A stretch of 64,000 nt of DNA from an uncultured Bacteroidales bacterium (GCA_905233345.1 CAJODQ010000006.1:1-64000), one strand, 5' to 3'. Shown: positions 42,895-61,428, counted from the first letter of the stretch. Numbers and translations are program-made. Notes: generated by a model from the letters alone, not told the origin.

Positions 42895-43416
42895 TCATTT
42901 CTTGTCCCTGCCTTCCTTCGGGGCCGGGCCCTGGGGAGGACGCTGGCCGTTTCCGTTGTGCTTGCGCAGGTTGTTGATCATGCGCTGCTGGAAGGCCTCT
43001 TCGGCCTGGTACAGCTTGGCCACCTTGCGAATGGGCAGCACCTTCTTGAATTTGGGATACCAGTCGGACATCACCTGGTTGGAGGCCTTGTTCGCCTGGA
43101 TGTAGGCGTCGACTTTCTTCTCCAGTTCGGCATCGGAGAGTTCGTCCGCTTTCGAACCGCGGAATTCGCCGAAGGCATCCATCATCGCCTTGTGGGAAAC
43201 CATGGCTTCTTTCCAGCATTGGTTGTACACCGGCCAGAACACCTGGGCCTCCTCGGGCGACAGGTCGAGTTCCTGGGTGATGAACGCGATCTTCTCGGAC
43301 TGAATGCGCTCGAAATCTTTCTTGCGCTGCTCTTCGCTCGGTTTCTGGCCCTGCGGCTGGGCGAAGAGGGTAACCGCCAGGAAAAGGCAGGCGGCGAAAC
43401 TAATGAATCGTTTCAT
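42895..43416 (-). CDS. periplasmic LTXXQ-motif / Spy-CpxP-like protein
   Basis: 173 aa with a signal peptide. Helical and lysine-rich, with spaced Gln/Glu motifs. Last gene of the ECF sigma operon. Confidence 0.55.
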   Translation of the reverse strand: MKRFISFAACLFLAVTLFAQPQGQKPSEEQRKKDFERIQSEKIAFITQELDLSPEEAQVFWPVYNQCWKEAMVSHKAMMDAFGEFRGSKADELSDAELEKKVDAYIQANKASNQVMSDWYPKFKKVLPIRKVAKLYQAEEAFQQRMINNLRKHNGNGQRPPQGPAPKEGRDKK

Positions 43417-43418
43417 GA

Positions 43419-43859
43419 CTAATAGGCTTGTGCGTAAATCTCGGCCAACTCGGAGAAGCTCAGCTCGGAAGCCAGATAGTCCAGGATGGCATCTTCGTCG
43501 AGCTCCGGCTCCTCGGTCGGCCCGGTTTGATAGTAATTGATGAGCGAAGCGGGACGGATCATCTCTTCCTCAGCCGTGGCGTACGAAGCGGACGCGTCGG
43601 TACCAGGTTTGTTCCCCATCGTACGGGTGAGGGATAGCACACCGTAGCCCATGCCGAAAATCAGGGCGAACATCGCGGCGAGGGTCAGCGCCGGCTTCAG
43701 GATCGTCCAGAAACGGACGGTCCGGGAAGCTGCTGGCTTCTCTTCGGCGGCGATGCGGGCCATCAGGCGATCCTCGAAACTGTCGAGGTAACCTTCCGGC
43801 ATCCGGAACGGATTCTCCCGGGCTTCAGGGCTGCTGAGTATGTCTTTCTGTTCGTTCAT
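43419..43859 (-). CDS. putative anti-sigma factor (single TM helix)
   Basis: 146 aa. Central TM helix ILKPALTLAAMFALIFGMGYGVL. Immediately downstream of the ECF sigma factor gene. Confidence 0.55.
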   Translation of the reverse strand: MNEQKDILSSPEARENPFRMPEGYLDSFEDRLMARIAAEEKPAASRTVRFWTILKPALTLAAMFALIFGMGYGVLSLTRTMGNKPGTDASASYATAEEEMIRPASLINYYQTGPTEEPELDEDAILDYLASELSFSELAEIYAQAY

Positions 43860-43891
43860 ACGGTCCTTAGACTATCCAATGGTTCAGAAGT

Positions 43892-44431
43892 TTAAAATTT
43901 CTCATCAATTTCTTCTTTCATCCATGTCTTGATCTTTTCGTAGGCATGGTGATAAGATGCTTTCAGCGCGCCTTCGCTGGTTTCCAGTACATCAGCGATC
44001 TTTTCGTAGGGCATCTCCTCGAAGTAGCGGAGGTTGAACACCGCTTTCTGCTTGGGGGGAAGTTTGGCGATGGCCTTGTGCAGCGATCGCTGGAGTTGGT
44101 CGCCATCGAACCAGGGGTCGGTGGCCAGGCGGGCGGCAGCCTCCAGGTCGAGGTTCCCGCCACGGGTCTGCTGGCGCGAGAGGAAGGTTAGGCTTTCGTT
44201 GGTGGCAATGCGATAGAGCCATGTATAGAGCAGCGCGTCGCCCCGGAAACGGTCGAGCGACTGCCAGACTTTCACAAAAGTGTTCTGCAGGCAGTCGTCG
44301 GTGTCGTCATGGTCGAGCACCATGCGGCGGATGTGCCAATAAAGGCGCTCCTTGTAAGTGGACACAAGTCCACGGAACGCCTTTTCACGCTCGCCGGAAC
44401 GGTAGAGTTGCAGTATTTCGGTATCGGTCAT
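43892..44431 (-). CDS. RNA polymerase sigma-70 factor, ECF subfamily
   Basis: 179 aa. Region 2 (...YKERLYWHIRRMVLDHDDTDDCLQNTFVKVW...) and region 4 (...VFNLRYFEEMPYEKIADVLETSEGALKA...). Confidence 0.85.
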   Translation of the reverse strand: MTDTEILQLYRSGEREKAFRGLVSTYKERLYWHIRRMVLDHDDTDDCLQNTFVKVWQSLDRFRGDALLYTWLYRIATNESLTFLSRQQTRGGNLDLEAAARLATDPWFDGDQLQRSLHKAIAKLPPKQKAVFNLRYFEEMPYEKIADVLETSEGALKASYHHAYEKIKTWMKEEIDEKF

Positions 44432-46294: not shown

Positions 46295-47671
46295 ATGAAA
46301 AAAATCCTGCTGATCCTGATGGCCTTTTTGAGCCTGACGTCGGCCCTGGCCCAGCCGGCGCCGCTGCCGGAACAAGTGGTGCTCGTGCAGCGCGCCAACG
46401 TGACGGCGGTGTTCGGCGGACCGACGCAGCCGCAGGGCCGCTCCTACAACAACGCGCCCTCCTTCTTCATCTATCCGGACAGGAAGCTCGACAAGACCGG
46501 CGCCGAAGCACTGGTGGCATCCCTGGACCTGCAGGCCGTGCTGGATGTGAACTTCGGAACGGCATTCGTCATCAATCCAGTCGGCGATGCCTATGCGGCA
46601 GACAAGGACTTCGAGGTCTTCGTGGAACTGTTCAACCGCGCCCGGAGTGGCAACCTGAAAGTCATCGGCTTTGGCAATGGCGCCAGCTTCGTCAACCAGG
46701 TGCTTGCCCTGCGCGCGGCCGATCATATCGCCGGCATCGCCACGGTAGACGGCAAGCCCGCCAAACTTCCCAAAGGGTTCACATCATGGGGTGTCCCGGC
46801 CTTCGTGAGCGGGAAGAATGCCGCCAAAGTGGCGAAAGAATACGAAGCGCTGAACGCGGCCCAGGCCCCTTATGAACCGCTGTTGCAGGTGGTTGTGTCG
46901 TCCGCAAACGAGCCGGGCGCTGTGTTCGCAGAGGCCTGGGAAAAAGTTTTCTCGCGCAATTTCCGCTTCAACAACTACAAGCATACCCACTACGAAGGCG
47001 CGAAATTCGGCCAGTACGGTCCCTATGAACTCGAACCCTATGCCGAATGGGAACCCCTCGGCATTGAGCGCATCGTCGTGGAATATGGCGCCTCGTACCG
47101 GGGCCGCGATCTCAACGGCCCGAAATACCTCTGGTATGAATACTGGCCCAAAGAGCTGAAGGAAGGCGCACCGGCGCACAGCGTGCCGGTGGTCGTGCTG
47201 CTGCACGGCAATACCAACGACCCGCGCACCCAGGCCGAAACCTCGGGCTTCCTGCAGGTAGCGGGCGAAGAGCGCATCTTCCTCGTGGAGATGGAATGGC
47301 AGGGCACGCCCAACTACCAGGCCATGGGCCACGACGGCATTGAGAGCGTACTGGCCATCCTGTTTGAAAAATATCCCCAGCTCGACCCTTCGCGCGTCTA
47401 TGCGCACGGGCTTTCCGCCGGTTCGATGACCGCCACCGCACTGGGTATCAAGAAATCGCACCTGTTCGCCGCCGTGGGCGGCAATTCCGGCGCCCTGTTT
47501 ACCGGCCACTGGATCGGGCCGTTCCCGACTTTCGAAACCATCTGGGCCGAAGCGACCCAGAAACGGGGCTGCGTGGAGACGGCCTACATCTCCGTCTTCG
47601 GCACAATGGACACCACCGTTCCTTACATGACCCCCGACAACTGGCGGGGCAACAGCTACCTCAACGCCTGA
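46295..47671 (+). CDS. secreted alpha/beta-hydrolase (esterase), truncated by an in-frame TGA at 47669-47671
   Basis: Signal peptide MKKILLILMAFLSLTSALA. Nucleophile elbow GLSAGS. The frame continues without shift into the next ORF. Confidence 0.7.
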   Translation: MKKILLILMAFLSLTSALAQPAPLPEQVVLVQRANVTAVFGGPTQPQGRSYNNAPSFFIYPDRKLDKTGAEALVASLDLQAVLDVNFGTAFVINPVGDAYAADKDFEVFVELFNRARSGNLKVIGFGNGASFVNQVLALRAADHIAGIATVDGKPAKLPKGFTSWGVPAFVSGKNAAKVAKEYEALNAAQAPYEPLLQVVVSSANEPGAVFAEAWEKVFSRNFRFNNYKHTHYEGAKFGQYGPYELEPYAEWEPLGIERIVVEYGASYRGRDLNGPKYLWYEYWPKELKEGAPAHSVPVVVLLHGNTNDPRTQAETSGFLQVAGEERIFLVEMEWQGTPNYQAMGHDGIESVLAILFEKYPQLDPSRVYAHGLSAGSMTATALGIKKSHLFAAVGGNSGALFTGHWIGPFPTFETIWAEATQKRGCVETAYISVFGTMDTTVPYMTPDNWRGNSYLNA

Positions 47672-47686
47672 AATGCCTATGAACAG

Positions 47687-47968
47687 ATGAACGGGATGCC
47701 GGTCGTCAGCGAGATGGATTTCGAGAATCATCCGCTCTTCGGACAGCCGCTCCGCGACCGCGAAACGATCCGCACCCACAAGGGCGAAGGCATCGTCATG
47801 GAGACGGGCCAGCTCTACAAGGGCGACATGCCGCTCATCAAACTGGTGGCGGTGGTGGACTACGGCCATTGGAATTTTATTCCTGCCGCTCGCGTCGCAT
47901 GGGATTTCTTCAAACACTACCGCCGCGACCCTGAAACCAAAAAATTGATCTATTCCGCGCGATTTTGA
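47687..47968 (+). CDS. in-frame downstream continuation of the esterase ORF (contains the likely catalytic-His region ...VVDYGHWNF...)
   Basis: Same reading frame as 46295..47671, separated only by one TGA. The peptide resembles the C-terminal end of an alpha/beta hydrolase. Confidence 0.45.
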   Translation: MNGMPVVSEMDFENHPLFGQPLRDRETIRTHKGEGIVMETGQLYKGDMPLIKLVAVVDYGHWNFIPAARVAWDFFKHYRRDPETKKLIYSARF

Positions 47969-48088
47969 ACCATTTTTACCAAGTTTTGTAGCCTTTTGAC
48001 CAGCTTTTTTACCTTTCCCGCTAATTTTGTTCTCGAAATCAGCCGTGAAACAAATTCAATAATTATAAATTTTTAAAGTTTTTGCATC

Positions 48089-49348
48089 ATGAAAAAGAAA
48101 GGTATCATCATTCTGAGCTCCGTAGTCATCCTTTGCGCTCTCGGTCTTCTGTTGTCTCCCCTGATGGACTGGAATGTCGACAGCGACCAGACCAGCGGCA
48201 ACATCGGCAAATCTTCCCGTTTCTCCCGCAAGACCACGACCGAAACCGTCAGTAATGTGGAGGAACTCCTCCTCAACGATGAGGCTTATAAAAATGGTAT
48301 GGTGGCCGCTTACGTGGTCATGCAGACCCGCGCCCAGCAGTTCGACGCCCTCGTGGATATGTCCAATGAGGTGGCCGGCGACATCAGCGACTTCGACGGC
48401 GTGCTCAAGGATATGAATAACGTCCGCCCGATGATCGACAACGTGTGTGCTTCGCTCTCTGAAGCCGGTGACGACCTGAACGCCGCTCTCAGCGGTCAAA
48501 GCCGTCCCGACCTGGCGCAGAACACCATCAACGCATCGCTGGCATACACCACGCTCCAGAAGCAGAACAAGCTGGCCGACCGCTTCATCATCACGGCCGA
48601 CACCTATCTTAATAATAACGAAGGCAACGACCGCCTCAAATTCGTCCGCGACCAGTGGGTGGCTTACCAGCAGATGACCGCCGCCCTTGACAACGACGAG
48701 AAGGCTGCCGCCGCCCTGGCGGAGAAAGGCTACAAGCTGACGCCCGAACAGAGCGCCGCCGCCCTGAATGAATTCGGCATGGCCGATGCCATCAAAATCA
48801 TGAACGGCACCGTGGTAGCCGGCTACGTGGCTATGGACTCCCCGCTGGCCCAAGCCATCACGACCGATATGGTTCAGGATGCGGCCCGCGCCATCGTCAC
48901 GACGGACATGGTCTCCGACCATATCACCTTTGGAGACGCTATCAAGAACGCCACGGGCGATGTGGTTGCCAGCACCATCACGGACGAAATGGTCCGGAAC
49001 GCCACGGGCGACGTGGTTTCCAACATCACGACCGATGCCGTCAAGAACGCCACGGGTGACGTGGTTTCCAATATCACGACCGATGCCGTCCGGAATATCA
49101 CCCAAGATGTGGTCAGTAATGGTATCGTCATGAGAGCCTCCGTATTCTCCGACAAGGACATGGTCAGCAACGCCTTCAACGAGATCGTTGTCAGGAACAG
49201 CATCGTCAACAACGTGACCACCGACATGGTCCGCAATGCCTCGGATGACCTGCGCAGCTCCATGGTCATGAACCAGATCGGCGATGCCATCAAGAACGTG
49301 GCCGTCGGTAATTTCCAAGGCGTCGGCTTCCTGGTGAAAGACTTATAA
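48089..49348 (+). CDS. membrane-anchored repeat protein of unknown function (tandem 16-aa repeats ITTD[AM]V[KR]NATGDVVSN)
   Basis: 419 aa with an N-terminal signal/anchor. The C-terminal third is built from ~8 degenerate copies of a 16-aa unit, seen as a 48-bp tandem DNA repeat at ~48944-49135. Confidence 0.6.
   Translation: MKKKGIIILSSVVILCALGLLLSPLMDWNVDSDQTSGNIGKSSRFSRKTTTETVSNVEELLLNDEAYKNGMVAAYVVMQTRAQQFDALVDMSNEVAGDISDFDGVLKDMNNVRPMIDNVCASLSEAGDDLNAALSGQSRPDLAQNTINASLAYTTLQKQNKLADRFIITADTYLNNNEGNDRLKFVRDQWVAYQQMTAALDNDEKAAAALAEKGYKLTPEQSAAALNEFGMADAIKIMNGTVVAGYVAMDSPLAQAITTDMVQDAARAIVTTDMVSDHITFGDAIKNATGDVVASTITDEMVRNATGDVVSNITTDAVKNATGDVVSNITTDAVRNITQDVVSNGIVMRASVFSDKDMVSNAFNEIVVRNSIVNNVTTDMVRNASDDLRSSMVMNQIGDAIKNVAVGNFQGVGFLVKDL
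48944..49135 (+). repeat. 48-bp coding tandem repeat (~4 clear copies) inside the repeat-protein gene
   Basis: aacgccacgggcgaygtggtttccaayatcacgaccgatgccgtcmrg repeated head-to-tail. Confidence 0.7.
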
Positions 49349-49375
49349 TAGTACCTGTTAATTCCTTCTTCGAAC

Positions 49376-52375
49376 ATGCGTATCCGATTCTTTGTACTGC
49401 TACTGCTGCTGTTCCCGGCCCTGACGCACGGACAGATTCAGACCTACTACCAGTATAAAACCGATGAAGCCCGGCTGGTGTTCTTCGACAAGAACCTCTC
49501 GCGCTACATCCCCCACATGGTACGCATGTTCCAAAACGGCAAGGCGCTTCACGGGCAGATCTGGACAACAGACTCCGTGTATGTCCCGGAAGCGCCCCTG
49601 CTGCTTTTGACGGACTGGGAGGACGACGGCAACGGCGGAGCAACGCCGCTGCCGCGTTCGCTTATTCAGATCGGCATGGCGCCGCTGAACATGTCCTATT
49701 ACATCAACCCATCGAGCGAGCGTTACCGGCAGCTGTTCTGTCACGAATACACGCACATCGTGATGACCGACAAATACAACCGCAAGGACCTGGGCTGGCG
49801 CAAGTTCTTCGGCACCAAAGTCAGTGTCGACAACACCCAGCCCCTCTCCGCCATCTGGAGCGCCGTGACGGTCCCCCGCTGGTATGCCCCCCGCTGGTAT
49901 CAGGAGGGCATTGCCTGTTTCATGGAGACCTGGCTCGGCGGTGGCGTCGGCCGCTCCCTGGGCGGTTACGACGAGATGTATTTCCGCAGCATCGTCGACG
50001 GCGGCGACAAGCTCTTCTCGGTGGTGGGCCTCGAGACGGAAGGCTCCACGATGGACTTCCAGGTGGGTGCCAACGCGTACCTCTACGGCACCCGCTTCGT
50101 CAATTTCCTGGCGAAAGAATACGGATACGAGAATCTGATCAAGTTCTACAACCGGACGGCCGACAGCCGCACCTATTTCGGCAACCAGTTCAAACAGGTC
50201 TACGGCCGCCCGCTCCGCAAAGTCTGGAACGAGTGGAAGGAAGACGAGAAAAAGCACCAGGCGGAGAACCTGGCCGCCATCCGGGAATATCCCCTTACCG
50301 AGACCACGCCCGTGACCCCGGAACCGCTGGGTTCCGTATCACCGCTGGTCTATGACCCCGCCACGGGCAAGGCCTACGCCGCCATGAACGCACCGGGCAG
50401 TTTCGCGCACCTGACCGAGATCGACGTGAACACCGGCAAGCGGCGGAAACTCGTCGATATCTACGGCATCCAGCTCTACAATCCCGCATTCGTAGCCCTG
50501 GACCGCAACGCCCATCGCCTCATCTACACATCAAACAACGCCAAGATGCGCGGCCTCTACGTGTACGACCTCCAGAAAAAGAAAGTCGTCAAGAAGAAGA
50601 ATTTCCAGCGCGTCAACAACATCGTGTATGACAATGTCAACGACTGCCTCTACGGCCTGTTCTCCAATGCCGGCACGCAGTCGATCGTCCGTTTCGACCG
50701 TGATATTGAAAATCCCGAGGTCATCTATGCCTTCCCCTTCGGCGTCAGTGTGTTCGACATTGACATCAGCCACGACGGCAAGATGCTGACCCTCACCCGG
50801 CAGGGCGACAACGGCGAGCACACGCTCCTGCTCTTCCGGACCGACGAACTGGCACAGGCCATTTTCAAGCCCGTGGAGCTGGTAACCTGGGAAGACAGCA
50901 ACCTGGGACAGTTCCGCTTCTCACTCGACGACAAATACCTGATCGGCAGCTCCTACTATACCGGCGTGTCGAACCTCTGGCAGATCAACATCGCCACCCG
51001 CGAGATGGAGATGCTCAGCAACACCGACATCGGCCTCTTCGCCCCGCTGGAATTCGAGCCCGACAAACTCCTGGCGCTTGAATTCGTGCGCGACGGCATG
51101 CGTCCGGTGACGCTCGACCGCAAGATCGTAACCGACGCCAACGCCATCACGCTCTACGGCCAGCGCGCTTTCGAGAACAACGAAAAAGCGCTCACGGAGG
51201 TGGGCCTGCACAAGGAACCCCTGCCCAAGATCGAGTTCGGCGACGTCTACAACAACATCACGCCTTACAACGTTTTCAAGGAGATGCGCTTCGCGGGCGC
51301 CTATCCCATCGTCTCAGGCTTCACCGACACCACGTTCTGGAATCGTGTGACGCCGGTGCTCGGCTACCGCTTCTTCTTCAGCGACCCGGTGGGCCTGAGC
51401 AGCATCAAGCTGGACTTCGGCATTTCGCCCTGGAGCAACCACGACTGGAAGAACAAGTTCCATGTGGACTTCATGTGGAAGTACTACTTCTGGACCCTCA
51501 AGGCCGCCTGGAACCACACTGACTTCTACGACCTGGCCGGCCCGATGCGTGCCAGCCGCAAGGGATACATGGTTACACTGGCCTACGACCACACCAACAC
51601 CATGCTGACACCGTATTCCCGCGGTTGGGGCTTCTCCCTGGGGGCTTACGGCGGCATGGACGCGCTGCCGCTCTATCAGGAGATCGAAGTGGACAAAGAC
51701 ATCAAAGCGCTGCAGACCGCTTCCGTCTACGGCAAGATCTCGAAAACCCGGACGTCCCTGGGCGGCGTGATGCGCGAGCAGGGCTATGAACTGGGCATCC
51801 AGGGCTACGGCTACCTGGCCGACTGGCACTTCTATCCTTCGGTCGAGGCTTCCGCCGATTTCGGCGTGTTGCTTCCGATCGACCGCAATACTTCTTTCTG
51901 GCTCCGTACCGCGGGCGGGCACAATTTCGGCGATCCCAACACGGTCTTCGGCAATACCTATCTGGGTGGCTTCCGCAACAACCGCGTAGACTACCGCAAC
52001 GCCTTCCAGTACCGCACGTCCCTGGCCATGCCGGGCGCGGCCATCGACGCCATCCAGGCACACTCCTATGCCAAGGCGACGGCCGAGCTCAACCTGCGGC
52101 CCATCCGCCTCAACAACTTCGGCGCCCTGTTCTTCTATCCGACCTGGATCCAGTGCTCCTTCTTCGGAACCGGCCTGTCCACCTGGAATCCCGACGTCAG
52201 CAAAACGATCCCGCAGATGTACTACAGCGCCGGCGTGCAGCTGACCACCGAGCTGGTGTTCATGACTTATCTCAAGACCACGCTTTCCTTTGGTTACGGA
52301 CACCTGTTCGCACCGGAAGGATTCAAAGGAGGAAGGCATGGCAATGAATGGATGATCTCACTCAAGTTGCTGTAA
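49376..52375 (+). CDS. large (~1000 aa) outer-membrane-type protein: N-terminal HExxH zinc-metallopeptidase-like domain + beta-propeller region + C-terminal beta-barrel-like domain; unknown family
   Basis: Signal peptide MRIRFFVLLLLLFPALTHG. HEYTH motif (QLFCHEYTHIVMTD), and a possible third ligand in WYQEGIACFMETW. Propeller-like repeats (...LYVYDLQKKKV..., ...TLLLFRTDELAQ...). The C-terminus is rich in alternating aromatic/Gly residues (...GWGFSLGAYGGMDALPLYQEIEV...). Confidence 0.7.
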   Translation: MRIRFFVLLLLLFPALTHGQIQTYYQYKTDEARLVFFDKNLSRYIPHMVRMFQNGKALHGQIWTTDSVYVPEAPLLLLTDWEDDGNGGATPLPRSLIQIGMAPLNMSYYINPSSERYRQLFCHEYTHIVMTDKYNRKDLGWRKFFGTKVSVDNTQPLSAIWSAVTVPRWYAPRWYQEGIACFMETWLGGGVGRSLGGYDEMYFRSIVDGGDKLFSVVGLETEGSTMDFQVGANAYLYGTRFVNFLAKEYGYENLIKFYNRTADSRTYFGNQFKQVYGRPLRKVWNEWKEDEKKHQAENLAAIREYPLTETTPVTPEPLGSVSPLVYDPATGKAYAAMNAPGSFAHLTEIDVNTGKRRKLVDIYGIQLYNPAFVALDRNAHRLIYTSNNAKMRGLYVYDLQKKKVVKKKNFQRVNNIVYDNVNDCLYGLFSNAGTQSIVRFDRDIENPEVIYAFPFGVSVFDIDISHDGKMLTLTRQGDNGEHTLLLFRTDELAQAIFKPVELVTWEDSNLGQFRFSLDDKYLIGSSYYTGVSNLWQINIATREMEMLSNTDIGLFAPLEFEPDKLLALEFVRDGMRPVTLDRKIVTDANAITLYGQRAFENNEKALTEVGLHKEPLPKIEFGDVYNNITPYNVFKEMRFAGAYPIVSGFTDTTFWNRVTPVLGYRFFFSDPVGLSSIKLDFGISPWSNHDWKNKFHVDFMWKYYFWTLKAAWNHTDFYDLAGPMRASRKGYMVTLAYDHTNTMLTPYSRGWGFSLGAYGGMDALPLYQEIEVDKDIKALQTASVYGKISKTRTSLGGVMREQGYELGIQGYGYLADWHFYPSVEASADFGVLLPIDRNTSFWLRTAGGHNFGDPNTVFGNTYLGGFRNNRVDYRNAFQYRTSLAMPGAAIDAIQAHSYAKATAELNLRPIRLNNFGALFFYPTWIQCSFFGTGLSTWNPDVSKTIPQMYYSAGVQLTTELVFMTYLKTTLSFGYGHLFAPEGFKGGRHGNEWMISLKLL

Positions 52376-53409
52376 TGTCGTTCGTCGCTGCCCTTCTCCC
52401 CGTCGCCATCTATATTTTTGTCGTCTATAAGCTCGACAAATTTTCGCTGCTGAGCGTCCAGCGCCTGCTGCTGCTGGTCCTGTGCGGCATGGGCGCGGCG
52501 CTGGTCTGCTTCGGCCTGTTCTGGCTGACCGATCCGCTGCTGCCAGAGCGCGCCTCCGATATCCTCGACCCGATCCTGGAAGAAGCCGTCAAGGCCATTC
52601 CACTCCTAATCCTGGCCCGTCGCAAGAAGATCGTGTTTTTCATCGACAGCGTCATCTGCGGCGCTGCGGTGGGCGGTGGCTTCTCCATCCTGGAAAATCT
52701 GTTTTACCTGCTGCTGGGTGAAGGCATGAGCATGGGCACCGTGCTGTTCCGCGGCCTGGAAGTGGCCCTGATCCACATGGGCTGCAGCGCCATCGTCGCC
52801 GCCGGCCTGATGTTCGCCGTCCGCTTGACGGAACGCCGCAAGGCCGGACTGGATGTCAAGCAAAAAGACGTGCTGATGTCCGTTTTCCTGCTCATTGCAG
52901 CCCCGGCGCTGCATGTCTTCCACAACAGCTTCCACTTCAACCCGCTCTTCCAGTATGTCTTCGTGTTCGGGTCCATGGCCGGGCTGCTGGTGTGGACTTA
53001 TTCCTATGACGGCGACATGATCCACCGCTGGTTGGACAAAGGCCTGGACAAGCAGGTGAGCCTGCTCCATTCCATCCGAGAAGGTCAGTTGGGAGAAACC
53101 AAGACTGGCCAGTTCCTGGTTTCGGTCAAGGATTCCTTCCCGCCGGAAGTCTTTTTCGACATCATCTGCTACGTGCAGCTACACGTGTCGCTTTCCGTGG
53201 CGGCCAAAAGTCGCTTCATGATGCGGGAGATGGGGTTGGCCCTTCCGTTGGAGGAAGAAAAGAAACAACAGTATCTTACGCAGTATCAGGAATATATCGA
53301 TCTGGAGAAAAATCTGGGCAAGAGTGCCCGGATGACGATTGCGCCGGTCGTGAAGTTTTACCCGGCCGACCGTAAATCCCTCGATGACTTGTTGGCCGAG
53401 TGCCGGTAA
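52348..53409 (+). CDS. PrsW-family intramembrane metalloprotease (M82-like); alternative start 52375
   Basis: 353 aa, multi-TM. PrsW signature motifs E-E-x-x-K (LEEAVKAIP), F-x-x-x-E (GGGFSILENLFY) and H-x-x-x-N (VFHNSFHFN). Overlaps the end of the upstream gene. Confidence 0.7.
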   Translation: MDDLTQVAVMSFVAALLPVAIYIFVVYKLDKFSLLSVQRLLLLVLCGMGAALVCFGLFWLTDPLLPERASDILDPILEEAVKAIPLLILARRKKIVFFIDSVICGAAVGGGFSILENLFYLLLGEGMSMGTVLFRGLEVALIHMGCSAIVAAGLMFAVRLTERRKAGLDVKQKDVLMSVFLLIAAPALHVFHNSFHFNPLFQYVFVFGSMAGLLVWTYSYDGDMIHRWLDKGLDKQVSLLHSIREGQLGETKTGQFLVSVKDSFPPEVFFDIICYVQLHVSLSVAAKSRFMMREMGLALPLEEEKKQQYLTQYQEYIDLEKNLGKSARMTIAPVVKFYPADRKSLDDLLAECR

Positions 53410-53458
53410 ACAATCCCGTTTGGTTTTTTGGGCACAAAATCCGAAATTTGTGTCCGAG

Positions 53459-54547
53459 ATGACCTATACTTTTCCGGAAATGATGCTCAGTGCCATGACG
53501 GCGGTCTATGTGGCCGTCAGCGTGGTGGTTGCGGTGGTCCGCTGGGGGCACCGGTGCACGGCCTATGCCAAGCACATGGACTATTATTTTCCGGATTGGA
53601 AAACTTTTATCTACTGCTTCATGTCCAACATCGTGCTCTGTCCGGTCATCTTCCTGCCCGCAGAAACCGATGCGGTCCTGCTGTTGCGCATGATGCTCAT
53701 GCTGGCTTCGCCCTTTCATTGCGCGGTGCTGATTTTCAGTTATTTCGGCCGGATACTCAACGTCACCTGGTGGCGCAAGCCCATCTACGCGCTGACAGCC
53801 ACTTATACGGTGATGGCCCTCATCGCGCTGGTAGTCACCCTCATACCCGGGACGCAGATGCAAGGCGACTTCTTCCGCTGGTTCTTCCTGGTGGGTGACC
53901 TCTTGGCCATGATCTATCTGATCAGTTTTGTCCTGGCCCTGAACATGATCATCCGCGCGCTCCAGCGCTTCTCCGACGAGAACTATTCCAACCCCGATGA
54001 TTTTCCGAAGCAATATACCGAGTTCATTCTCTGGGTGTCGGTCCTGCACCTGATCATGAGCTGGAGTATGGCGTTCAACGGTCGGATCTGGGCCCTTTCC
54101 TTCGGTCTGTTCATCCTGTCCATCCTGGCTGTCGTCCTGCTGATCGGTGCCCTCAACCCGCACCGGACGGTGGAGGTGGACCAGCTGGAAGCAGCGCTCA
54201 ATGCCGAGAAGGAAGAAAAGGCGATGGAAACGGACATCCTCTCGCCGGAACGGAAAGAGGAAATTCTGCTCGCCATCCGCCAGCAGGTGGAAGAGAAAGA
54301 GGGTTTCCTCGACAGCCACCTCACACTCAGCAAATTGTCCCGTGACTGCGGGCTCAACCGCACCTATGTATCCTGGGTGCTGAACGAACGGCTCGGCGGC
54401 TTCTTCTTTTACATCAACCGCTGCCGCATGGCCCACGCGGACAGCTACAAGGCATCGCACCCGCAGGCCGATGTCGACGAGGTTGCGCTCGCTTCGGGTT
54501 TCAACAACCGCCAGTCGTTCTACAACGCCCGCAAGCGCCTCGGTTGA
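53459..54547 (+). CDS. polytopic membrane protein with C-terminal AraC-type HTH DNA-binding domain (membrane-tethered transcriptional regulator); alternative start 53384
   Basis: ~6-7 TM helices, then the cytoplasmic AraC HTH pair LTLSKLSRDCGLNRTYVSWVLNERLGG ... DVDEVALASGFNNRQSFYNARKRLG. Confidence 0.75.
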   Translation: MTYTFPEMMLSAMTAVYVAVSVVVAVVRWGHRCTAYAKHMDYYFPDWKTFIYCFMSNIVLCPVIFLPAETDAVLLLRMMLMLASPFHCAVLIFSYFGRILNVTWWRKPIYALTATYTVMALIALVVTLIPGTQMQGDFFRWFFLVGDLLAMIYLISFVLALNMIIRALQRFSDENYSNPDDFPKQYTEFILWVSVLHLIMSWSMAFNGRIWALSFGLFILSILAVVLLIGALNPHRTVEVDQLEAALNAEKEEKAMETDILSPERKEEILLAIRQQVEEKEGFLDSHLTLSKLSRDCGLNRTYVSWVLNERLGGFFFYINRCRMAHADSYKASHPQADVDEVALASGFNNRQSFYNARKRLG

Positions 54548-54553
54548 TCCAGT

Positions 54554-55363
54554 TTATTTCGGAAGACCAAAAGCCCCTTTGAGTTCGTCCATCTGCGCGT
54601 CGCTCATCCCTTCGGGCTCAAAGCCCATGTTGCGCGCCGCGATATAGATTTGGGCGGCCTTGTTGAGGACGTCCACCTGGTCGAAGGCGTTGAGGATATC
54701 GGTTTCTACGGCAAAGACGCCGTGTTTTTCCCACATCACCACATCGTAATCTTCATCCAGGGCCCGGATGGTCGCTTCAGCCAGCTCGACACTCGAAGGC
54801 ATCAGGTAAGGCACGATGCCCAGGCCACGCGGGCAGAAGGCCCGGGTCTCGGGAATCATCGACCAGAGCATACGCGTGGCAGCGTCTTTTTCGAGCCATT
54901 TCCGGCTGTGGGTCAAGGCCACCAGCTCGATGGGATGCGTATGCAGCGAGGCGCGGTAGGGCGAGCCTTTGGCCAGCAGGTAGTCGTGGACAGCCAGGTG
55001 CGACGGGAGCTCCGAGGTGGGGGCGACGGGCGCATCTGCGACGATCTCGTAGCGGTCACAACCCGGCAGGATGCGGATGATGGAACCGTTGGCCATGGGG
55101 TCGCGGGCCAGGTCGCGCATGCGGCGGCCCGTGCCTTTGCAGTAGAACCAGCAGCCCGCCAGGTGCGGCAATGCCTTGCCGATGGGGCGAGGCTCCGTGA
55201 GGGCCGGCAACGCCCGCATCGCATCGTCGACATAGGCGGTGATGTTGATGGTGATATTGCCGCCGTTACGCTCGGCCCAGCCCTTTTGCCAGAGATAGCC
55301 GGCCACTTCGGCGACTTTGTCGATTTCGGCCTGCAGGGCCGGATGTTGGATTAAGATGTTCAT
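54554..55363 (-). CDS. rhaD: rhamnulose-1-phosphate aldolase (class II aldolase/adducin family)
   Basis: Start at the internal ATG (MNILIQHPALQAEIDKVAEVAGYLWQKGWAERNGGNITI...). Class II aldolase fold. Lies in the rha operon. Confidence 0.85.
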   Translation of the reverse strand: MNILIQHPALQAEIDKVAEVAGYLWQKGWAERNGGNITINITAYVDDAMRALPALTEPRPIGKALPHLAGCWFYCKGTGRRMRDLARDPMANGSIIRILPGCDRYEIVADAPVAPTSELPSHLAVHDYLLAKGSPYRASLHTHPIELVALTHSRKWLEKDAATRMLWSMIPETRAFCPRGLGIVPYLMPSSVELAEATIRALDEDYDVVMWEKHGVFAVETDILNAFDQVDVLNKAAQIYIAARNMGFEPEGMSDAQMDELKGAFGLPK

Positions 55364-56370
55364 ATCAATTGTGGCAAGAAGGTACTGAATATTAACACCG
55401 CCAGACCGATAACCAACACCAGGATGGTTTTCTTCGAGGCTCCCTTCCATTCATGGAGAATAATGCCCCAGACATTGCTGAAAACGACATTGAGGGCCAT
55501 CAGGATACACCAGCTGAAGGTGATCAGCGTCGGGTATTCGCGCAGGAAGCCCTTGCCGAGGCTCAGGCCGAAGAACTGACTGTACCAGAGCAGGCCGGCC
55601 AGGGCACAGAACACCAGGTTGTGGCCCCAAAGGGACTTTTGCCTGTAATCGCCCCATGTCTTGTTTTTCGTGTTCTGGCTGAAGCAATACACGGCGTTTG
55701 TCAGAAAACCGCCGAAGGTCACCAGCAGCGTAGCGGGCAGGCTCTTGAAGATATCGGGGGTAGCTTCCCAAGTCAAAGGTTCACCGAAGCTCAGGCCGAT
55801 GTTGAAGCAGGCGCTCATGAAGCCGGCCAGCAAGGCTACGGCGATGCCCTTCCCGAAGTTGAACTCCTTAACAGCACCGGCTTGACCCGGCATCTCCCGG
55901 GCTTTCATAGCCCCTGCCACGCCGATGATGGCGATGCCGACAAGGGTGACCACCACACCGATGATGACCGAAGAGGTCAGATCATGGGCATGACCCGTAA
56001 AGACGGGGCCAAGGATGGCACCCAGGGCGGAACATGTACCAAGGGCGATGCTCTGACCGAGGGCGACGCCGAGGTAGCGCATGCTCAGGCCAAAGGTCAG
56101 GCCGCCGATGCCCCAGAGGGCGCCGAAGAGGATGGTCAGGAGGCTGGCCTTGGGATTGGCGGCATACATGGCGAAGAGGGATTCGCCAGCCGGGACGGCG
56201 AGGAGGGCGCCCAACAGCGGGAAGATCAGCCAGGCGAAGACGCCCTGGACGATCCAGTAGCTTTCCCAGCTCCAGGATTTGATCTTATTGATCGGCACAT
56301 AGCTGCTGCTCTGGCAGAACGCGCCGATAGCGATGATTAACAGTCCGATGAATATGTTCATAATCAACAT
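55360..56370 (-). CDS. rhaT: L-rhamnose-proton symporter
   Basis: 336 aa, 10 TM helices, RhaT family (...SYWIVQGVFAWLIFPLLGALLAVP...). Confidence 0.85.
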   Translation of the reverse strand: MLIMNIFIGLLIIAIGAFCQSSSYVPINKIKSWSWESYWIVQGVFAWLIFPLLGALLAVPAGESLFAMYAANPKASLLTILFGALWGIGGLTFGLSMRYLGVALGQSIALGTCSALGAILGPVFTGHAHDLTSSVIIGVVVTLVGIAIIGVAGAMKAREMPGQAGAVKEFNFGKGIAVALLAGFMSACFNIGLSFGEPLTWEATPDIFKSLPATLLVTFGGFLTNAVYCFSQNTKNKTWGDYRQKSLWGHNLVFCALAGLLWYSQFFGLSLGKGFLREYPTLITFSWCILMALNVVFSNVWGIILHEWKGASKKTILVLVIGLAVLIFSTFLPQLI

Positions 56371-56436
56371 TTGCGATAAATCTTCCGTTCCGCAGTATAT
56401 AGGGTTTCAACCCTATATACTGTCTCCACTACAGAT

Positions 56437-57687
56437 TTATCTCTTCGATGTTACGTTACGTTCGTATTTCTCGATTTCGGGGATAAAGGCCTCACCCACA
56501 GGGACATTGTTCTTGAGGTTGAAATAGTCGAAGACGGCGCCGAAGGGAAGGGTCTTGGCTTCTTCTAAGAGAGCGAGGCGCTGGAAGCCCTGGCCGGCGT
56601 CTTCGTATTCCCGCAGCTTTTTCAGCGGCTCGAGGAGGGCGCTCAGCAGACATTTCTGCGTGGCGCGGGAGCCGATCACGTAGGCGCCGATGCGGTTGAT
56701 GGCAGCATCGAAATAGTCGAGGCCGATGTGGCTGCGTTGCAGCGCGTCGGCGCGCACAATCTCCTTGAAGAGGTCGAGCGTCTGATCGTTCATGATGGTC
56801 ACATGGTCGGAATCCCAGCGGATGGGACGGCTCACGTGCAGCATCAGCTCGGGCACGAAGAGCAGCAGCGACGCAACCATGTCGGACACATTTTCCGTCA
56901 TCTCATAGTGTCCCGTATCGAGCGTGTACATCAACTTGCGGGTGGCGCAGTAGCCTGCCACGAAGTCGTGCGAGCCCACGGTATAGCTTTCCAGGCCGAT
57001 GCCGAAGAGTTTGGCCTCGAGGCAGGTCTTCATGCCGGGCAGGTCTTCCTTCAGGATTTCGTCCAAGCTCTGGGCGAAGATCTCGCGGTAACGCTTACGC
57101 TCCACAGTCTGGTCCTTGGAACCGTCATGCACCCAGATATTCATGATGCAGGGGTCGCCCTGCGCCTTGCCCATCGCGTCGGCAATGCGGCGGCAGCGCT
57201 TGGTGTGCTCGATCCAGAAGTCCCGGATGCCTTTGTCAGGGTTGGCCAGCGAAAGGTCGCCGCTCTTGGGGTGACCGAACGACGTGGAGTTGAAGTCGAG
57301 CTTCATGTCGTTTTCTTTCGCCCACTGGATCCAGCTCTCGAAATAGCGGACGTCCACCTGGTCGCGGTCTACGAACTTGCCGCCGAAGTCACCGTAGATT
57401 TCGTGGAGGTTGAGGCGGTGGCGGCCGGCGATCAGGCTCTTGGCAAAACGCACGTCAGCGCGCACTTCGTCGATATTGCGGGCGCGGCCCGGATAATTGC
57501 CGGTGGTCTGGATGCCGCCCGACAGGCCGTCTGCACTCTCAAAACCGATGACATCATCGGTCTGCCAGCAGTGCAGGGAAATGGGGGTTTGTTCCAGGAT
57601 TTCGACGGCTTTGTCGGTGTCTACGCCCAGTGCGGCGTAGCGTTCGCGGGCGTATTCATAAGCTTTCAGGATTTCGGAATCTTTCAT
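56437..57687 (-). CDS. rhaA: L-rhamnose isomerase
   Basis: Start at the internal ATG (MKDSEILKAYEYARERYAALGVDTDKAVE...), 416 aa. RhaA TIM-barrel family (...WVHDGSKDQTVERKRYREIF...). Confidence 0.9.
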   Translation of the reverse strand: MKDSEILKAYEYARERYAALGVDTDKAVEILEQTPISLHCWQTDDVIGFESADGLSGGIQTTGNYPGRARNIDEVRADVRFAKSLIAGRHRLNLHEIYGDFGGKFVDRDQVDVRYFESWIQWAKENDMKLDFNSTSFGHPKSGDLSLANPDKGIRDFWIEHTKRCRRIADAMGKAQGDPCIMNIWVHDGSKDQTVERKRYREIFAQSLDEILKEDLPGMKTCLEAKLFGIGLESYTVGSHDFVAGYCATRKLMYTLDTGHYEMTENVSDMVASLLLFVPELMLHVSRPIRWDSDHVTIMNDQTLDLFKEIVRADALQRSHIGLDYFDAAINRIGAYVIGSRATQKCLLSALLEPLKKLREYEDAGQGFQRLALLEEAKTLPFGAVFDYFNLKNNVPVGEAFIPEIEKYERNVTSKR

Positions 57688-57712
57688 ATGTTGTATATGC
57701 GTATTGTTATCT

Positions 57713-57790
57713 AAGTGCTGCAGATGTCCCATTTTTGGGGACATCAACTTCAAAAATGCCTGTATTCGCTGTTGATGTCCCACTTTTTGG
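57713..57790 (-). promoter_or_regulatory. two copies of a ~26-nt palindromic element (GATGTCCCAnTTTTTGGGGACATCAAC) in the rhaB-rhaA intergenic region
   Basis: Copy 1 at 57713-57738, copy 2 at 57761-57790. Each forms an 8-11-bp perfect stem with a U-rich loop. Confidence 0.6.
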
Positions 57791-57794
57791 GACA

Positions 57795-59282
<1,488 letters not shown>

Positions 59283-59283
59283 C

Positions 59284-61428
59284 TTATTTATACTTATACG
59301 CGACCCGCTGGAGGCTCTCGTCTGCCGAACAGCCACCGTAAAGCAGTTCCCATTCGCCCTTTATCGGGACCATGTCGCCGGCTTCGGGCGACCAGGAAAG
59401 GAAGGTCTCCGCCGTGAGGGGAAACTTGACCGTCACCGTCTCGCCGGCCGGGACGAAGACGCGCTGGAAGCTGCGAAGCGACTTGACCGGCCCTTCCGTA
59501 TCGGCCATGCGGCGGATATACAACTGGGCCACCTCGACTGCGTCACGGGAACCGGTATTCGTAATCGGAATTTCGAGCACGCCTCTCCGGACTTTGGCCA
59601 GACCATAGCTAAAAGTCGTATAGCTTAAACCGAACCCGAAGGGGAACACCGGCTCGTCATCCACCATGTAACGGTAGGTGCGGCCTTTCATGGAATAGTC
59701 TTCGAAATCCGGAATCTGCGCGGTGTCCCGGTAGAAGGTAACAGGCAACTTGCCGGACGGAACCACCTCGCCGAAAAGAATCTCGGCCAGCGCCGTGCCG
59801 CCTTCCTCACCCGGATACCAAGCCTGAACGATGGCTTCGCAACTCTCTTTCTCGGGCGCCAGTCCCATGGCAGAGCCGGAGAAATTGACCAGCACCACTT
59901 TCTTGCCGGCGTCATGCAGGCATTGGAGCAACTGCCGCTGCACGGCAGGAAGCTGGATGTCGGTACGGTCGCCACCCCGGAAGCCGGGCAGGTCGACCGG
60001 CATCTCTTCGCCTTCCACCCGCGGCGAAATGCCGCCGGCGAAGACCACGATGTCAATATCTTTCAGCTGTTTCAGCACGTCGGCAATCTCTTGGGCCGAC
60101 AAGGACTCTTTGCGTACGAGCTCGCAGCCCGGGAAGCACACCAGGTCGGGGATCCATTCGCGCATGGCCCCGGCCAGCGTCACGGTCTTTTCGGGAATCG
60201 GGTTATAGTTGCCCCAGAGCATCTCCGCGTCGTCGGCATTGGGTCCGATCAAGGCGATGCGGGCCTTCGGATCGAGCGGCAGCAGCCCGTCGCGATCCTG
60301 CAGCAGGACGATGGATTCACGGGCGATCTGGCGCGCGAGGGCCAGGTGCTCCGGTCCCTCAATGATGTCTTCGGACAGCGCCTCCCAGGGTTGATCGTTC
60401 CCGTCAAGTTCGCCCAGCCGGATCCGGGCGGCGAGCAGGCGGGTCAGCAGCGGATCCAGCTCCGCTTCGTCAAGCACGCCGGCATGTACAGCATCGGCGA
60501 TGTGCCGGTATGATTCCCCGCAGTTGAGGTCCGTACCGGCGCGGACGGCTTCCGCCACGGCGTGTTCCACGTCCGGGCTGTAGCCATGCCTCCCCGGCAT
60601 GAAGAAGTCGTGGATGGCCCAGCAGTCGGAAGTCACCAGGCCCTTGTAGCCCCATTCGCCGCGAAGCACCGTATCGATCAGGAAGAGGCTGGCCGCACAG
60701 GGCTTGCCGCGGAAACGGTTGTACGCCACCATCACTTCCTGTACGTTCGCCTTTGTCACCAGGTCTTTGAAGGCCGGGAGATAGGTCTCGCGCAGATCGC
60801 GGTCGCTCACGTTCGCATCGAAGCTGTGCCGGTTCCATTCGGGGCCGGAATGGACGGCGAAATGCTTGGCGCAGGCATGGGCTTTGAGCACCTCCGCCTC
60901 GGAGGGACCCTGGAGTCCCCGCACCACGGCCATGCCCAGTTGTCCGGTCAAATACGGATCTTCGCCATAGGTTTCCATGCCGCGTCCCCAGCGCGGGTCG
61001 CGGAAGATATTGATATTCGGCGTCCAGAAAGTAATTCCTTCATACCAGTCAGAATGTCCGTCCGCCATCCCGATCCGGTGCTTGACGCGAGCCTCGTCGC
61101 TGACAGCGGTAAAGACCGCTTCGATCAGCGGCGCGTCGAACGAGGCCGCCATGCCGATGGGCTGGGGAAAAGTCGTGGCCTTGCCGTTGCGGGCGACGCC
61201 ATGCAGCGCCTCATTCCACCAGTTGTACGGCAGGATGCCCAGCGATTCCACGCCACCGGCATCGTGTCGCATCAGCGCCTCTTTTTCTTCCAGCGTCATG
61301 TGGGAAATCAGCATCCGGGCCCGCTCTTCGGGCGTGGGGCCAGCGGGGGTGTCGGAAGCTTTGGGTGTCGGATTGTGGGTACAGGCTGCCACCAGGACGG
61401 CGAGCAGCAATAGACGCAAAGGTTTCAT
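59284..61428 (-). CDS. glycoside hydrolase family 3 (beta-glucosidase/beta-xylosidase-like) lipoprotein
   Basis: 714 aa. Lipobox AACTHN. GH3 N-terminal domain (...FWTPNINIFRDPRWGRGMETYGEDP...) and catalytic region (...VTSDCWAI...). Confidence 0.9.
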   Translation of the reverse strand: MKPLRLLLLAVLVAACTHNPTPKASDTPAGPTPEERARMLISHMTLEEKEALMRHDAGGVESLGILPYNWWNEALHGVARNGKATTFPQPIGMAASFDAPLIEAVFTAVSDEARVKHRIGMADGHSDWYEGITFWTPNINIFRDPRWGRGMETYGEDPYLTGQLGMAVVRGLQGPSEAEVLKAHACAKHFAVHSGPEWNRHSFDANVSDRDLRETYLPAFKDLVTKANVQEVMVAYNRFRGKPCAASLFLIDTVLRGEWGYKGLVTSDCWAIHDFFMPGRHGYSPDVEHAVAEAVRAGTDLNCGESYRHIADAVHAGVLDEAELDPLLTRLLAARIRLGELDGNDQPWEALSEDIIEGPEHLALARQIARESIVLLQDRDGLLPLDPKARIALIGPNADDAEMLWGNYNPIPEKTVTLAGAMREWIPDLVCFPGCELVRKESLSAQEIADVLKQLKDIDIVVFAGGISPRVEGEEMPVDLPGFRGGDRTDIQLPAVQRQLLQCLHDAGKKVVLVNFSGSAMGLAPEKESCEAIVQAWYPGEEGGTALAEILFGEVVPSGKLPVTFYRDTAQIPDFEDYSMKGRTYRYMVDDEPVFPFGFGLSYTTFSYGLAKVRRGVLEIPITNTGSRDAVEVAQLYIRRMADTEGPVKSLRSFQRVFVPAGETVTVKFPLTAETFLSWSPEAGDMVPIKGEWELLYGGCSADESLQRVAYKYK

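Follow-up and report, generated by a model that had tools for sequence, protein, structure and literature searches.

Conserved association of a WD40-like Omp85 peptidase protein with PrsW and a repeat protein across several bacterial phyla, and a membrane AraC-type protein beside it in one lineage

The four genes and their products

The window analyzed here is a 64,000-nucleotide stretch of DNA from an uncultured Bacteroidales bacterium (GCA_905233345.1, CAJODQ010000006.1:1-64000). Between positions 48089 and 54547 it carries four plus-strand genes, which encode a repeat protein (Rep), a large secreted outer-membrane protein (BIG), a PrsW-family membrane protease and a membrane-bound AraC-type regulator (AraC). 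As set out below, rep, BIG and prsW travel together across phyla and can be regarded with high confidence as a conserved functional unit. Judged by sequence, the transcription factor conserved as its partner, where there is one, is an extracytoplasmic function (ECF) sigma factor paired with an anti-sigma factor, not AraC, which looks like a recent local addition to an old three-gene module.

The first gene, rep (48089..49348), encodes a single-pass inner-membrane protein of 419 aa and is followed after 27 nt by BIG (49376..52375), whose 999-aa product is a secreted outer-membrane protein of the 'WD40-like Omp85' kind. The BIG stop codon overlaps the start of prsW (52375..53409; a polytopic membrane metalloprotease of 344 aa) by 1 nt (TAATG), or by 28 nt if an alternative upstream ATG at 52348 is used, which would give 353 aa. 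A 49-nt spacer then leads to araC (53459..54547; a polytopic membrane regulator of 362 aa), the earliest ATG of which lies at 53384. The shorter starts at 52375 and 53459 are preferred because they agree with the lengths of homologues (344-349 aa for PrsW, about 361-363 aa for AraC). A preliminary description of this DNA had claimed four co-directional, closely packed genes for a repeat protein, an HExxH/propeller/barrel protein, PrsW and a membrane AraC. The open reading frames (ORFs) are found where it placed them, presumably co-transcribed, and its domain assignments stand. NCBIfam and PADLOC scans of the four proteins returned nothing useful, and no PADLOC anti-phage defence component was matched. 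A generic sigma-70 and terminator scan told little in an organism of this type.

BIG begins with a signal peptide. Its AlphaFold model, built on a diverse alignment, has a predicted local distance difference test score (pLDDT) of 88.9 and a predicted template modelling score of 0.87; an earlier model on a shallow alignment was poor (pLDDT 55.7). The better model has a helical, putatively gluzincin-like peptidase domain (residues 22-305; about nt 49439-50290) with the HExxH motif HEYTH at residues 123-127 (nt 49742-49756), a six-bladed TolB-like propeller (310-585; about nt 50303-51130) and a 16-strand BamA-like barrel (638-998; about nt 51263-52372). The only Pfam match is a weak one to Peptidase_MA_2 (E 5e-4 with the whole protein and 3.5e-5 with the domain alone, both below the cut-off; 24.1 bits against 32.4), and there is no patatin domain. 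All 82 distinct full-length relatives have H123, E124, H127, E177 and Y237 unchanged, which argues that the peptidase site is under selection. BamA is the best fold match of the barrel; the propeller dominates whole-chain fold searches, which yielded no match specific to the peptidase domain. No POTRA fold precedes the barrel in the model, the linker of residues 586-636 consisting of short helices. By analogy with Omp85 proteins, the peptidase and propeller would face the periplasm.

The family to which BIG appears to belong has been catalogued. A 'WD40-like' Omp85 subfamily was defined by Heinz and Lithgow in 2014 (PMC4104836), and in the supplement of that paper, members from Cloacimonas, Rhodothermus and Caldithrix are listed with TolB and M1-type aminopeptidases as templates; we place BIG there by the described architecture of an Omp85 barrel with a TolB-like propeller and, as a probable third part, an aminopeptidase-like domain. 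In its accessible portions, the paper lists the subfamily without function, partner or gene neighbourhood and raises a BamA-BamB fusion-like interpretation, and the phrase "divergent WD40 and peptidase domains" recurs in a 2024 paper, the accessible text of which gives no function or partner. To this catalogue the present analysis adds the link to PrsW, Rep and ECF sigma factors. A relative of BIG with 36% identity is encoded in a Cloacimonadota locus (L087).

The product of prsW matches PF13367 with E 2.4e-16 and 60.3 bits (curated cut-off 23.5), and a PrsW from a distant copy of the module (L059) scores 86.2 bits. Hydropathy gives five to six peaks, as for a polytopic protein. Across 68 module-linked PrsW sequences the EExxK motif (68-72; E68, E69 and K72 individually), F102, E106, N107, H133, H180 and N184 are kept in at least 95%, and the sequence thus places the window protein in the PrsW family (MEROPS M82, PF13367). 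Module-linked PrsW proteins also end in a shared, conserved tail on the cytoplasmic side, about 130 aa long (about nt 53017-53406 in the window), for which there is no Pfam match.

Proteins of the Rep family share one plan. An N-terminal transmembrane (TM) helix is followed by a juxtamembrane motif and some 200 aa of conserved helical sequence, and short repeats form an array at the C-terminus. In the window Rep, the anchor is residues 5-23 and the motif reads SGNIGK (residues 36-41); most lineages have SGTIGK, and the relatives of the window have SG[DN]I[AG]K. Tandem Repeats Finder detects 48-nt (16-aa) repeats of the form NATGDVVSNITTDAVK at 48942..49113 (period 48, about 3 copies, 83% matches). 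The array is hypervariable and wholly lineage-specific, with units such as DAEKLG or NTDLIDF elsewhere and GDVVSNITTDAVKNAT in the window. Rep matched no Pfam, NCBIfam or PADLOC family, nor did the conserved region alone match Pfam; a two-partner secretion (TPS) domain was likewise undetected in the Pfam scan.

Conservation of rep, BIG and prsW and their sigma-factor partners

Hidden Markov models (HMMs) were built from the sequences of this analysis and run on all ORFs of the fetched loci, with thresholds set by eye and ORFs called mechanically from the first ATG. At E<=0.001 the BIG family has 1933 cluster representatives, and its full-length members reach down to about 26% identity. In a species-level genome collection a BIG relative is encoded in at least 589 stretches (589 of the 600 that were pattern-matched among the matches listed). 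The metagenome-assembled genomes (MAGs) are labelled as rumen Bacteroidales and Prevotellaceae, Xylanibacter ruminicola, Prolixibacteraceae, Paludibacter and Lentimicrobiaceae and, beyond these, as Melioribacteraceae and Ignavibacteriales, Acidobacteriota, Cloacimonadota and Neomarinimicrobiota. Such labels are possibly wrong; two loci are labelled Alphaproteobacteria and Hyphomicrobiales.

Forty-eight loci, from Bacteroidota, Ignavibacteriota, Acidobacteriota and other groups, are well flanked, that is, with at least 5 kb upstream and at least 2.5 kb downstream of BIG. PrsW is encoded in 45 of them, Rep in 46, and an ECF sigma factor with an adjacent single-TM protein of about 250 aa in 16. 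AraC is found in three, all in the near clade of the window. Members of the Rep family occur in 72 loci of the first set, in one to three copies each. The commonest layout is rep-BIG-prsW (19 loci, plus 9 with AraC), followed by prsW-sigma-antisigma-rep-BIG (14), prsW-rep-BIG (12) and BIG-prsW (7); sigma-antisigma-rep-BIG-prsW is another recurrent layout. Metagenome contigs, scanned independently, agreed with this, and the last-named arrangement was common among the most distant members. Judged by sequence, the linkage of rep, BIG and prsW across phyla is more than chance. A conserved envelope proteolysis and signalling set around PrsW and the HExxH/propeller/barrel protein, as the preliminary description had proposed, is thus supported by the neighbourhoods; AraC, which it had counted as a member, did not emerge as a conserved partner from the same search, being confined to the near clade and missing from many close relatives.

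Some loci carry more than one copy of the module or further signalling genes. L063 and L077 have two copies per contig, those of L077 being sigma-antisigma-rep-rep-BIG and prsW-rep-BIG. In about 20 distant loci (L037-L079; e.g., L043:182-2524 and L046:11986-14317) a partner-switching set stands beside the module: a dCache-HAMP-SpoIIE (PP2C) phosphatase, an RsbW-like HATPase_c_2 kinase and an ORF of about 109 aa, with an NMT1-like binding protein in at least one locus (L046).

The in-cluster sigma factor, represented by a 181-aa protein, was identified as an ECF sigma by Pfam. Within 80 nt upstream of 24 of 36 such genes lies the motif ACCAACTTTT-N11-13-TGTAWT, a conserved promoter of the ECF type; when 83-nt stretches were drawn at random from these loci, 0.1% contained it. 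The -10-like TGTAWT ends 1 nt before the sigma ATG in 18 loci (e.g., L059:5214 and L146:3749), which suggests either leaderless sigma mRNAs or miscalled starts. ECF sigma/anti-sigma pairs are the canonical class of PrsW substrate, and it is on the genomic association with such pairs in related loci that a site-1 role for the module PrsW rests.

The window cluster itself encodes no ECF sigma factor or single-pass anti-sigma factor beside PrsW, and the motif has no copy in the 64 kb. The only ECF sigma gene of the window (43892-44431, minus strand; 179 aa) overlaps the gene for a transketolase C-terminal subunit by 4 nt and is followed, within a minus-strand unit at 42895-44431, by genes for a 146-aa single-TM anti-sigma-like protein and a 173-aa secreted protein. 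We considered whether it might be a displaced module sigma and rejected this: it has its own partners besides the overlap with the transketolase gene, it scores 191 bits where in-cluster sigmas mostly score 206-250, and the window is without the module promoter motif. By its sequence context, 42895-44431 appears to be a sigma/anti-sigma unit of its own, transcribed together with a metabolic gene.

Rep and the module anti-sigma factors are, by their sequences, related in design. In 27 of 33 module anti-sigmas a G[TS][ILMF] motif follows the TM helix within 30 aa, about 12 residues past the helix, and every one of 139 Rep proteins has a relaxed form of the juxtamembrane motif. The background frequency, taken from the other ORFs with a TM helix in these loci, is 7%. 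Moreover, in L137, L140, L155 and L164 the two are fused: an anti-sigma N-domain (anti-sigma HMM positions 3-141 matched), a TM helix, GTIG...YR and up to about 30 short repeats occur in one protein. No description of such fusions was found in the literature searched. No other single finding argues as strongly as these fusions that Rep-type ectodomains are part of a signalling device built on anti-sigmas.

The fusions also bear on a different view of the core, in which it serves secretion or surface display. Rep would be a cargo that PrsW frees, the BIG barrel exports and the BIG peptidase matures, in a two-partner or type Vd-like manner, and the sigma/anti-sigma pair or AraC would merely regulate expression. 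The hypervariable repeats and the one to three Rep paralogues beside BIG are what one expects of exposed, diversifying proteins, the BIG barrel is of the Omp85 family, and PrsW domains have been proposed as processing or export peptidases for attached toxins (PMC3482391). However, a Rep ectodomain joined in several lineages to a cytoplasmic anti-sigma domain fits a sensor rather than a cargo; there is no POTRA in the linker at residues 586-636 and no detected TPS-type domain in Rep, and the best barrel match is BamA. We regard the export of Rep as an unlikely role.

Quality control of outer-membrane proteins is, in our estimate, an equally unlikely role for BIG, although it largely overlaps the explanation that we prefer and differs mainly in the substrate of BIG. 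Here, BIG would combine a BamA-like barrel, a BamB/TolB-like propeller and a BepA-like protease, PrsW and the ECF sigma would constitute an envelope-stress response, and Rep would be an RseB-like regulator or adaptor. The combination of folds in BIG speaks for this, as do the BamA-BamB fusion-like interpretation of WD40-like Omp85 proteins in the accessible text of PMC4104836 and the clustering of a sigma, an anti-sigma and a site-1-type protease, which parallels sigmaE, RseA and DegS. Such a machine leaves unexplained both the hypervariable repeat arrays and the anti-sigma::Rep fusions. We favor, with moderate confidence, a core that acts as proteolytic arm in an envelope-spanning anti-sigma pathway of the PrsW type.

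The membrane AraC protein and its candidate operator

The window AraC has six hydropathy peaks and one weaker segment in its membrane part (about nt 53459-54154) and a predicted C-terminal helix-turn-helix (HTH) domain (about nt 54311-54544). It is probably a 7-TM protein with the N-terminus outside and the HTH inside, an orientation that fits the distribution of positive charge. HTH_18 matches the C-terminus with E 1.5e-5 and 25.6 bits, below the cut-off of 33.6, and PF12833 is present in many close homologues according to precomputed annotation; the membrane bundle has no Pfam match. The sequence also lacks the juxtamembrane motif common to Rep and the anti-sigmas. The only other contig with the exact BIG protein of the window, L001, has the same sequence otherwise. 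An apparent 155-bp indel between the two in the PrsW-AraC spacer was dismissed as an artefact: L001 has a scaffold gap of Ns there (L001:14134-14230), and the Ns and duplicated flanks lie within the AraC start, so that the AraC gene call is shifted in that contig.

AraC follows prsW after 5-50 nt in the nearest relatives of the window (labelled Bacteroidales, Ca. Cryptobacteroides and uncultured Bacteroidia; BIG 78-83% identical). The next clade out, which has loci labelled Prevotellaceae, Prevotella and Xylanibacter ruminicola among its members (BIG about 68-80% identical), does not have the gene; examples of close relatives without it are L006, L013-L019 and L021-L025, Xylanibacter ruminicola included. 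In one MAG, AraC is 56% identical to the window protein while BIG is 81% and PrsW 78% identical, so AraC evolves faster than its neighbours. Paralogues with 51-52% identity stand in another, conserved setting with no PrsW nearby, after thrC and Met_synt_B12 and before giant surface-protein genes encoding 1040 to more than 2100 aa (L002:10001-16360 and L088:2109-6812). Two AraC-bearing loci, L099 (5241-5558) and L109 (2200-2520), have an additional HTH-only paralogue of 105 aa directly upstream of rep, 59% identical to AraC residues 266-361.

Among distant loci, an AraC protein is encoded only in L036, a MAG in which a 407-aa polytopic AraC-HTH protein lies between BIG and prsW. Its likeness to the window AraC is confined to the linker and HTH (22% identity), the membrane part having no detectable similarity; in L092, the nearest relative of L036, BIG and PrsW are directly adjacent with no AraC. 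A metagenome scan found no relatives of the L036 protein. Two independent insertions of AraC-type genes into the module, in about 1.4 Mb of the first set of loci where AraC-HTH genes are otherwise rare, are mildly suggestive of a functional tie.

A candidate operator lies upstream of rep. At 47974..48000 (plus strand) the window reads TTTTACCAAGTTTTGTAGCCTTTTGAC, a direct repeat TTTTAC-N15-TTTGAC with two TTTKAC half-sites 21 bp apart; TTTKAC-N15-TTTKAC occurs once in the window, both strands counted. The TAnnTTTG sequence is the established Bacteroides -7 consensus. A box of this type, TAATTTTG (48022..48029), begins 21 nt after the repeat and 60 nt upstream of the rep ATG, and would by this analogy be the rep promoter box, a TAnnTTTG box being found at similar distance upstream of rep in many related loci. 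The direct repeat overlaps the -33 region of this promoter. Of 11 loci with AraC, 8 have this arrangement upstream of rep, as against 3 of 25 loci without AraC, one of which is probably truncated; the intergenic sequence around it is poorly conserved. In the paralogue contigs L002, L003, L088 and L089, a direct repeat of this kind (TTTTTACC..TTTTGACA, twice) occurs exactly once each, between the AraC paralogue and the next giant gene, with a -7-like box shortly downstream of it. In L002 and L088 the repeats in this spacer read TTTTTACC..TTTTGAC.

Because the repeat tracks AraC in two contexts and HTH-only paralogues adjoin rep, AraC is most likely a local regulator of the operon in the clade of the window. 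The recurrence in a different genomic context is a stronger point here than the count of loci.

The preliminary description had a different arrangement in mind: BIG and PrsW would control the release or turnover of a membrane-tethered AraC, the output of a signalling cascade. AraC does lie 5-50 nt after prsW in the clade of the window, a second polytopic AraC stands between BIG and prsW in the distant MAG, and a swap of regulators is conceivable because the sigma/anti-sigma pair occupies the same place adjoining PrsW elsewhere. Yet about 94% of the well-flanked module loci have no AraC gene, nor do many close relatives; L092 has BIG and PrsW adjacent without it; and its paralogues at 51-52% identity occur in a PrsW-free context. 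A 7-TM AraC without the juxtamembrane motif of Rep and the anti-sigmas is unlike the known single-pass substrates of PrsW, membrane regulators of the ToxR and CadC type can act without release, and the cis-repeat evidence points to AraC acting on the operon rather than being acted upon. We consider proteolytic release of AraC to be rather improbable.

The neighbours of AraC on its other side raise the question of whether it belongs to the cluster at all. A rhamnose utilisation cluster on the minus strand (54554-61428; class II aldolase, RhaT, RhaA, FGGY kinase and GH3) converges on araC and ends 6 nt from its stop codon, AraC is lineage-restricted, and a near-consensus Bacteroidota promoter in the PrsW-AraC spacer, TTTG-N20-GAAATTTG (53419..53450, plus strand; a pattern match with one mismatch to TAnnTTTG), is a possible internal promoter for AraC. 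AraC could thus be an unrelated neighbour, for example, the regulator of the rhamnose genes. This role was rejected, as the adjacency is not kept in other AraC-bearing loci, where the downstream genes vary (PAP2 or cytidylate-kinase-like) while the prsW-AraC junction stays; moreover, the AraC-family repeat lies upstream of rep, away from the rhamnose genes, and the HTH-only paralogues flank rep in L099 and L109. An AraC unconnected with the module is the least probable of the accounts that we considered.

On the other flank of the cluster is a secreted esterase-like gene (46295-47968; 458 aa, with weak Esterase_PHB and Peptidase_S9 matches). It is broken by an in-frame TGA at 47669-47671, after which the frame resumes as a 93-aa ORF (47687-47968); this could reflect a pseudogene, a sequencing error or a recoded stop.

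Proposed pathway and relation to known systems

In our best explanation, AraC regulates a module that had an ECF sigma factor as its original output; we put the probability of this at about one in two. The functional statements in it derive from sequence, structure prediction and synteny. Rep would sit in the inner membrane by its single helix, with the juxtamembrane G-x-[ILMF] and the variable repeats on the periplasmic side. The repeat ectodomain of Rep or of the anti-sigma would be bound by the BIG propeller and trimmed by the BIG peptidase; since TolB propellers bind short disordered peptides, such as the TolB box of colicins, docking of the Rep repeats on the propeller is suggested. PrsW would then make a membrane-proximal site-1 cut, and where an anti-sigma is present, the ECF sigma would be freed. 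In the lineage of the window, which appears to have a housekeeping-type promoter and has no sigma/anti-sigma pair in the cluster, a 7-TM AraC would have been gained after prsW, together with the TTTKAC direct repeat over the rep promoter. AraC would be a membrane-embedded one-component regulator that binds the repeat and controls transcription of rep-BIG-prsW-araC.

A bolder version, which we advance only tentatively, is that Rep, BIG, PrsW, ECF sigma and repeat-bearing anti-sigma make up an unrecognised trans-envelope pathway that is widespread in the Fibrobacterota-Chlorobiota-Bacteroidota (FCB) group, Acidobacteriota and other diderm phyla, in which BIG and PrsW jointly process a repeat-array sensor and which the lineage of the window has rewired to a 7-TM AraC. 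In that rumen Bacteroidales lineage, AraC itself would possibly come under PrsW-dependent control.

Several points weigh against the explanation that we prefer. Every proteolytic step in it is inferred. Two-thirds of the well-flanked loci, the window included, have no sigma/anti-sigma pair in cis. The function of the core may lie outside signalling, for instance in the quality control of outer-membrane proteins or in exporting Rep. Since PrsW of B. subtilis cuts RsiW well outside the membrane, away from any juxtamembrane motif, the motif common to Rep and the anti-sigmas may be there for another protease or for docking. The periplasmic orientation of the soluble domains of BIG is drawn from the Omp85 analogy, and a surface-exposed passenger, as in PlpD, is possible. 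As for the operator, the shared ancestry of the AraC-bearing loci limits what their count can say, three AraC-bearing loci do not have the repeat, and two or three AraC-lacking loci do.

The closest likeness is to the PrsW/RsiW/sigmaW system of Bacillus subtilis and the PrsW/RsiT/sigmaT system of Clostridioides difficile. PrsW with EExxK, H and HxxxN is common to them and the module, and many related loci encode PrsW beside an ECF sigma and a single-pass anti-sigma. In the RsiW pathway, further extracytoplasmic trimming proteases are needed after the PrsW cut, a role that BIG could fill by analogy. PrsW signalling has been studied chiefly in Gram-positive bacteria. In contrast, the module is diderm, has an outer-membrane Omp85-peptidase partner and a repeat-bearing anti-sigma-like protein, and its PrsW carries the extra conserved tail of about 130 aa; in the window, moreover, the cluster has a 7-TM AraC gene appended and no sigma/anti-sigma pair.

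FecA/FecR/FecI and sigmaE/RseA/DegS resemble the module in linking an outer-membrane component through a single-pass anti-sigma to an ECF sigma by stepwise proteolysis. However, the module has no TonB-dependent transducer, FecR domain, DegS or PDZ protease, and its outer-membrane partner is itself a protease on an Omp85 barrel. Two-partner secretion (TpsB/FhaC) and type Vd (PlpD) systems are set apart by the POTRA and TPS domains and the patatin passenger, none of which was detected in the module. AraC, for its part, recalls ToxR, CadC and the Bacteroides hybrid two-component systems, in which the sensor part of the protein anchors its DNA-binding domain to the membrane. Many membrane proteins of Bacteroidota carry HTH domains of the AraC type; unlike those systems, AraC has a 7-TM bundle as its presumed sensor and no kinase or receiver domain.

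The component families and the stepwise proteolysis of a membrane-anchored regulator are thus known, and it is their fixed association that appears to be undescribed. The preliminary description had suggested novelty for the combination; in the literature that we searched on PrsW together with ECF, Bacteroidetes or Omp85, neither the gene set nor a BIG-PrsW-Rep-ECF linkage was described, although the family of BIG is already catalogued.

WD40-like Omp85 proteins have been listed since 2014 without a role, and fixed partners in PrsW, Rep and often an ECF pair turn them into subjects of testable hypotheses. We know of no DegS/RseA-type system in Bacteroidota, and the module is a candidate outer-membrane or envelope stress response of that phylum. 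For the uncharacterised 7-TM AraC family, the locus supplies a defined candidate operator matched to its regulator. If the pathway is as proposed, it would give a function to an orphan Omp85 subfamily and a diderm, outer-membrane-linked role to PrsW.

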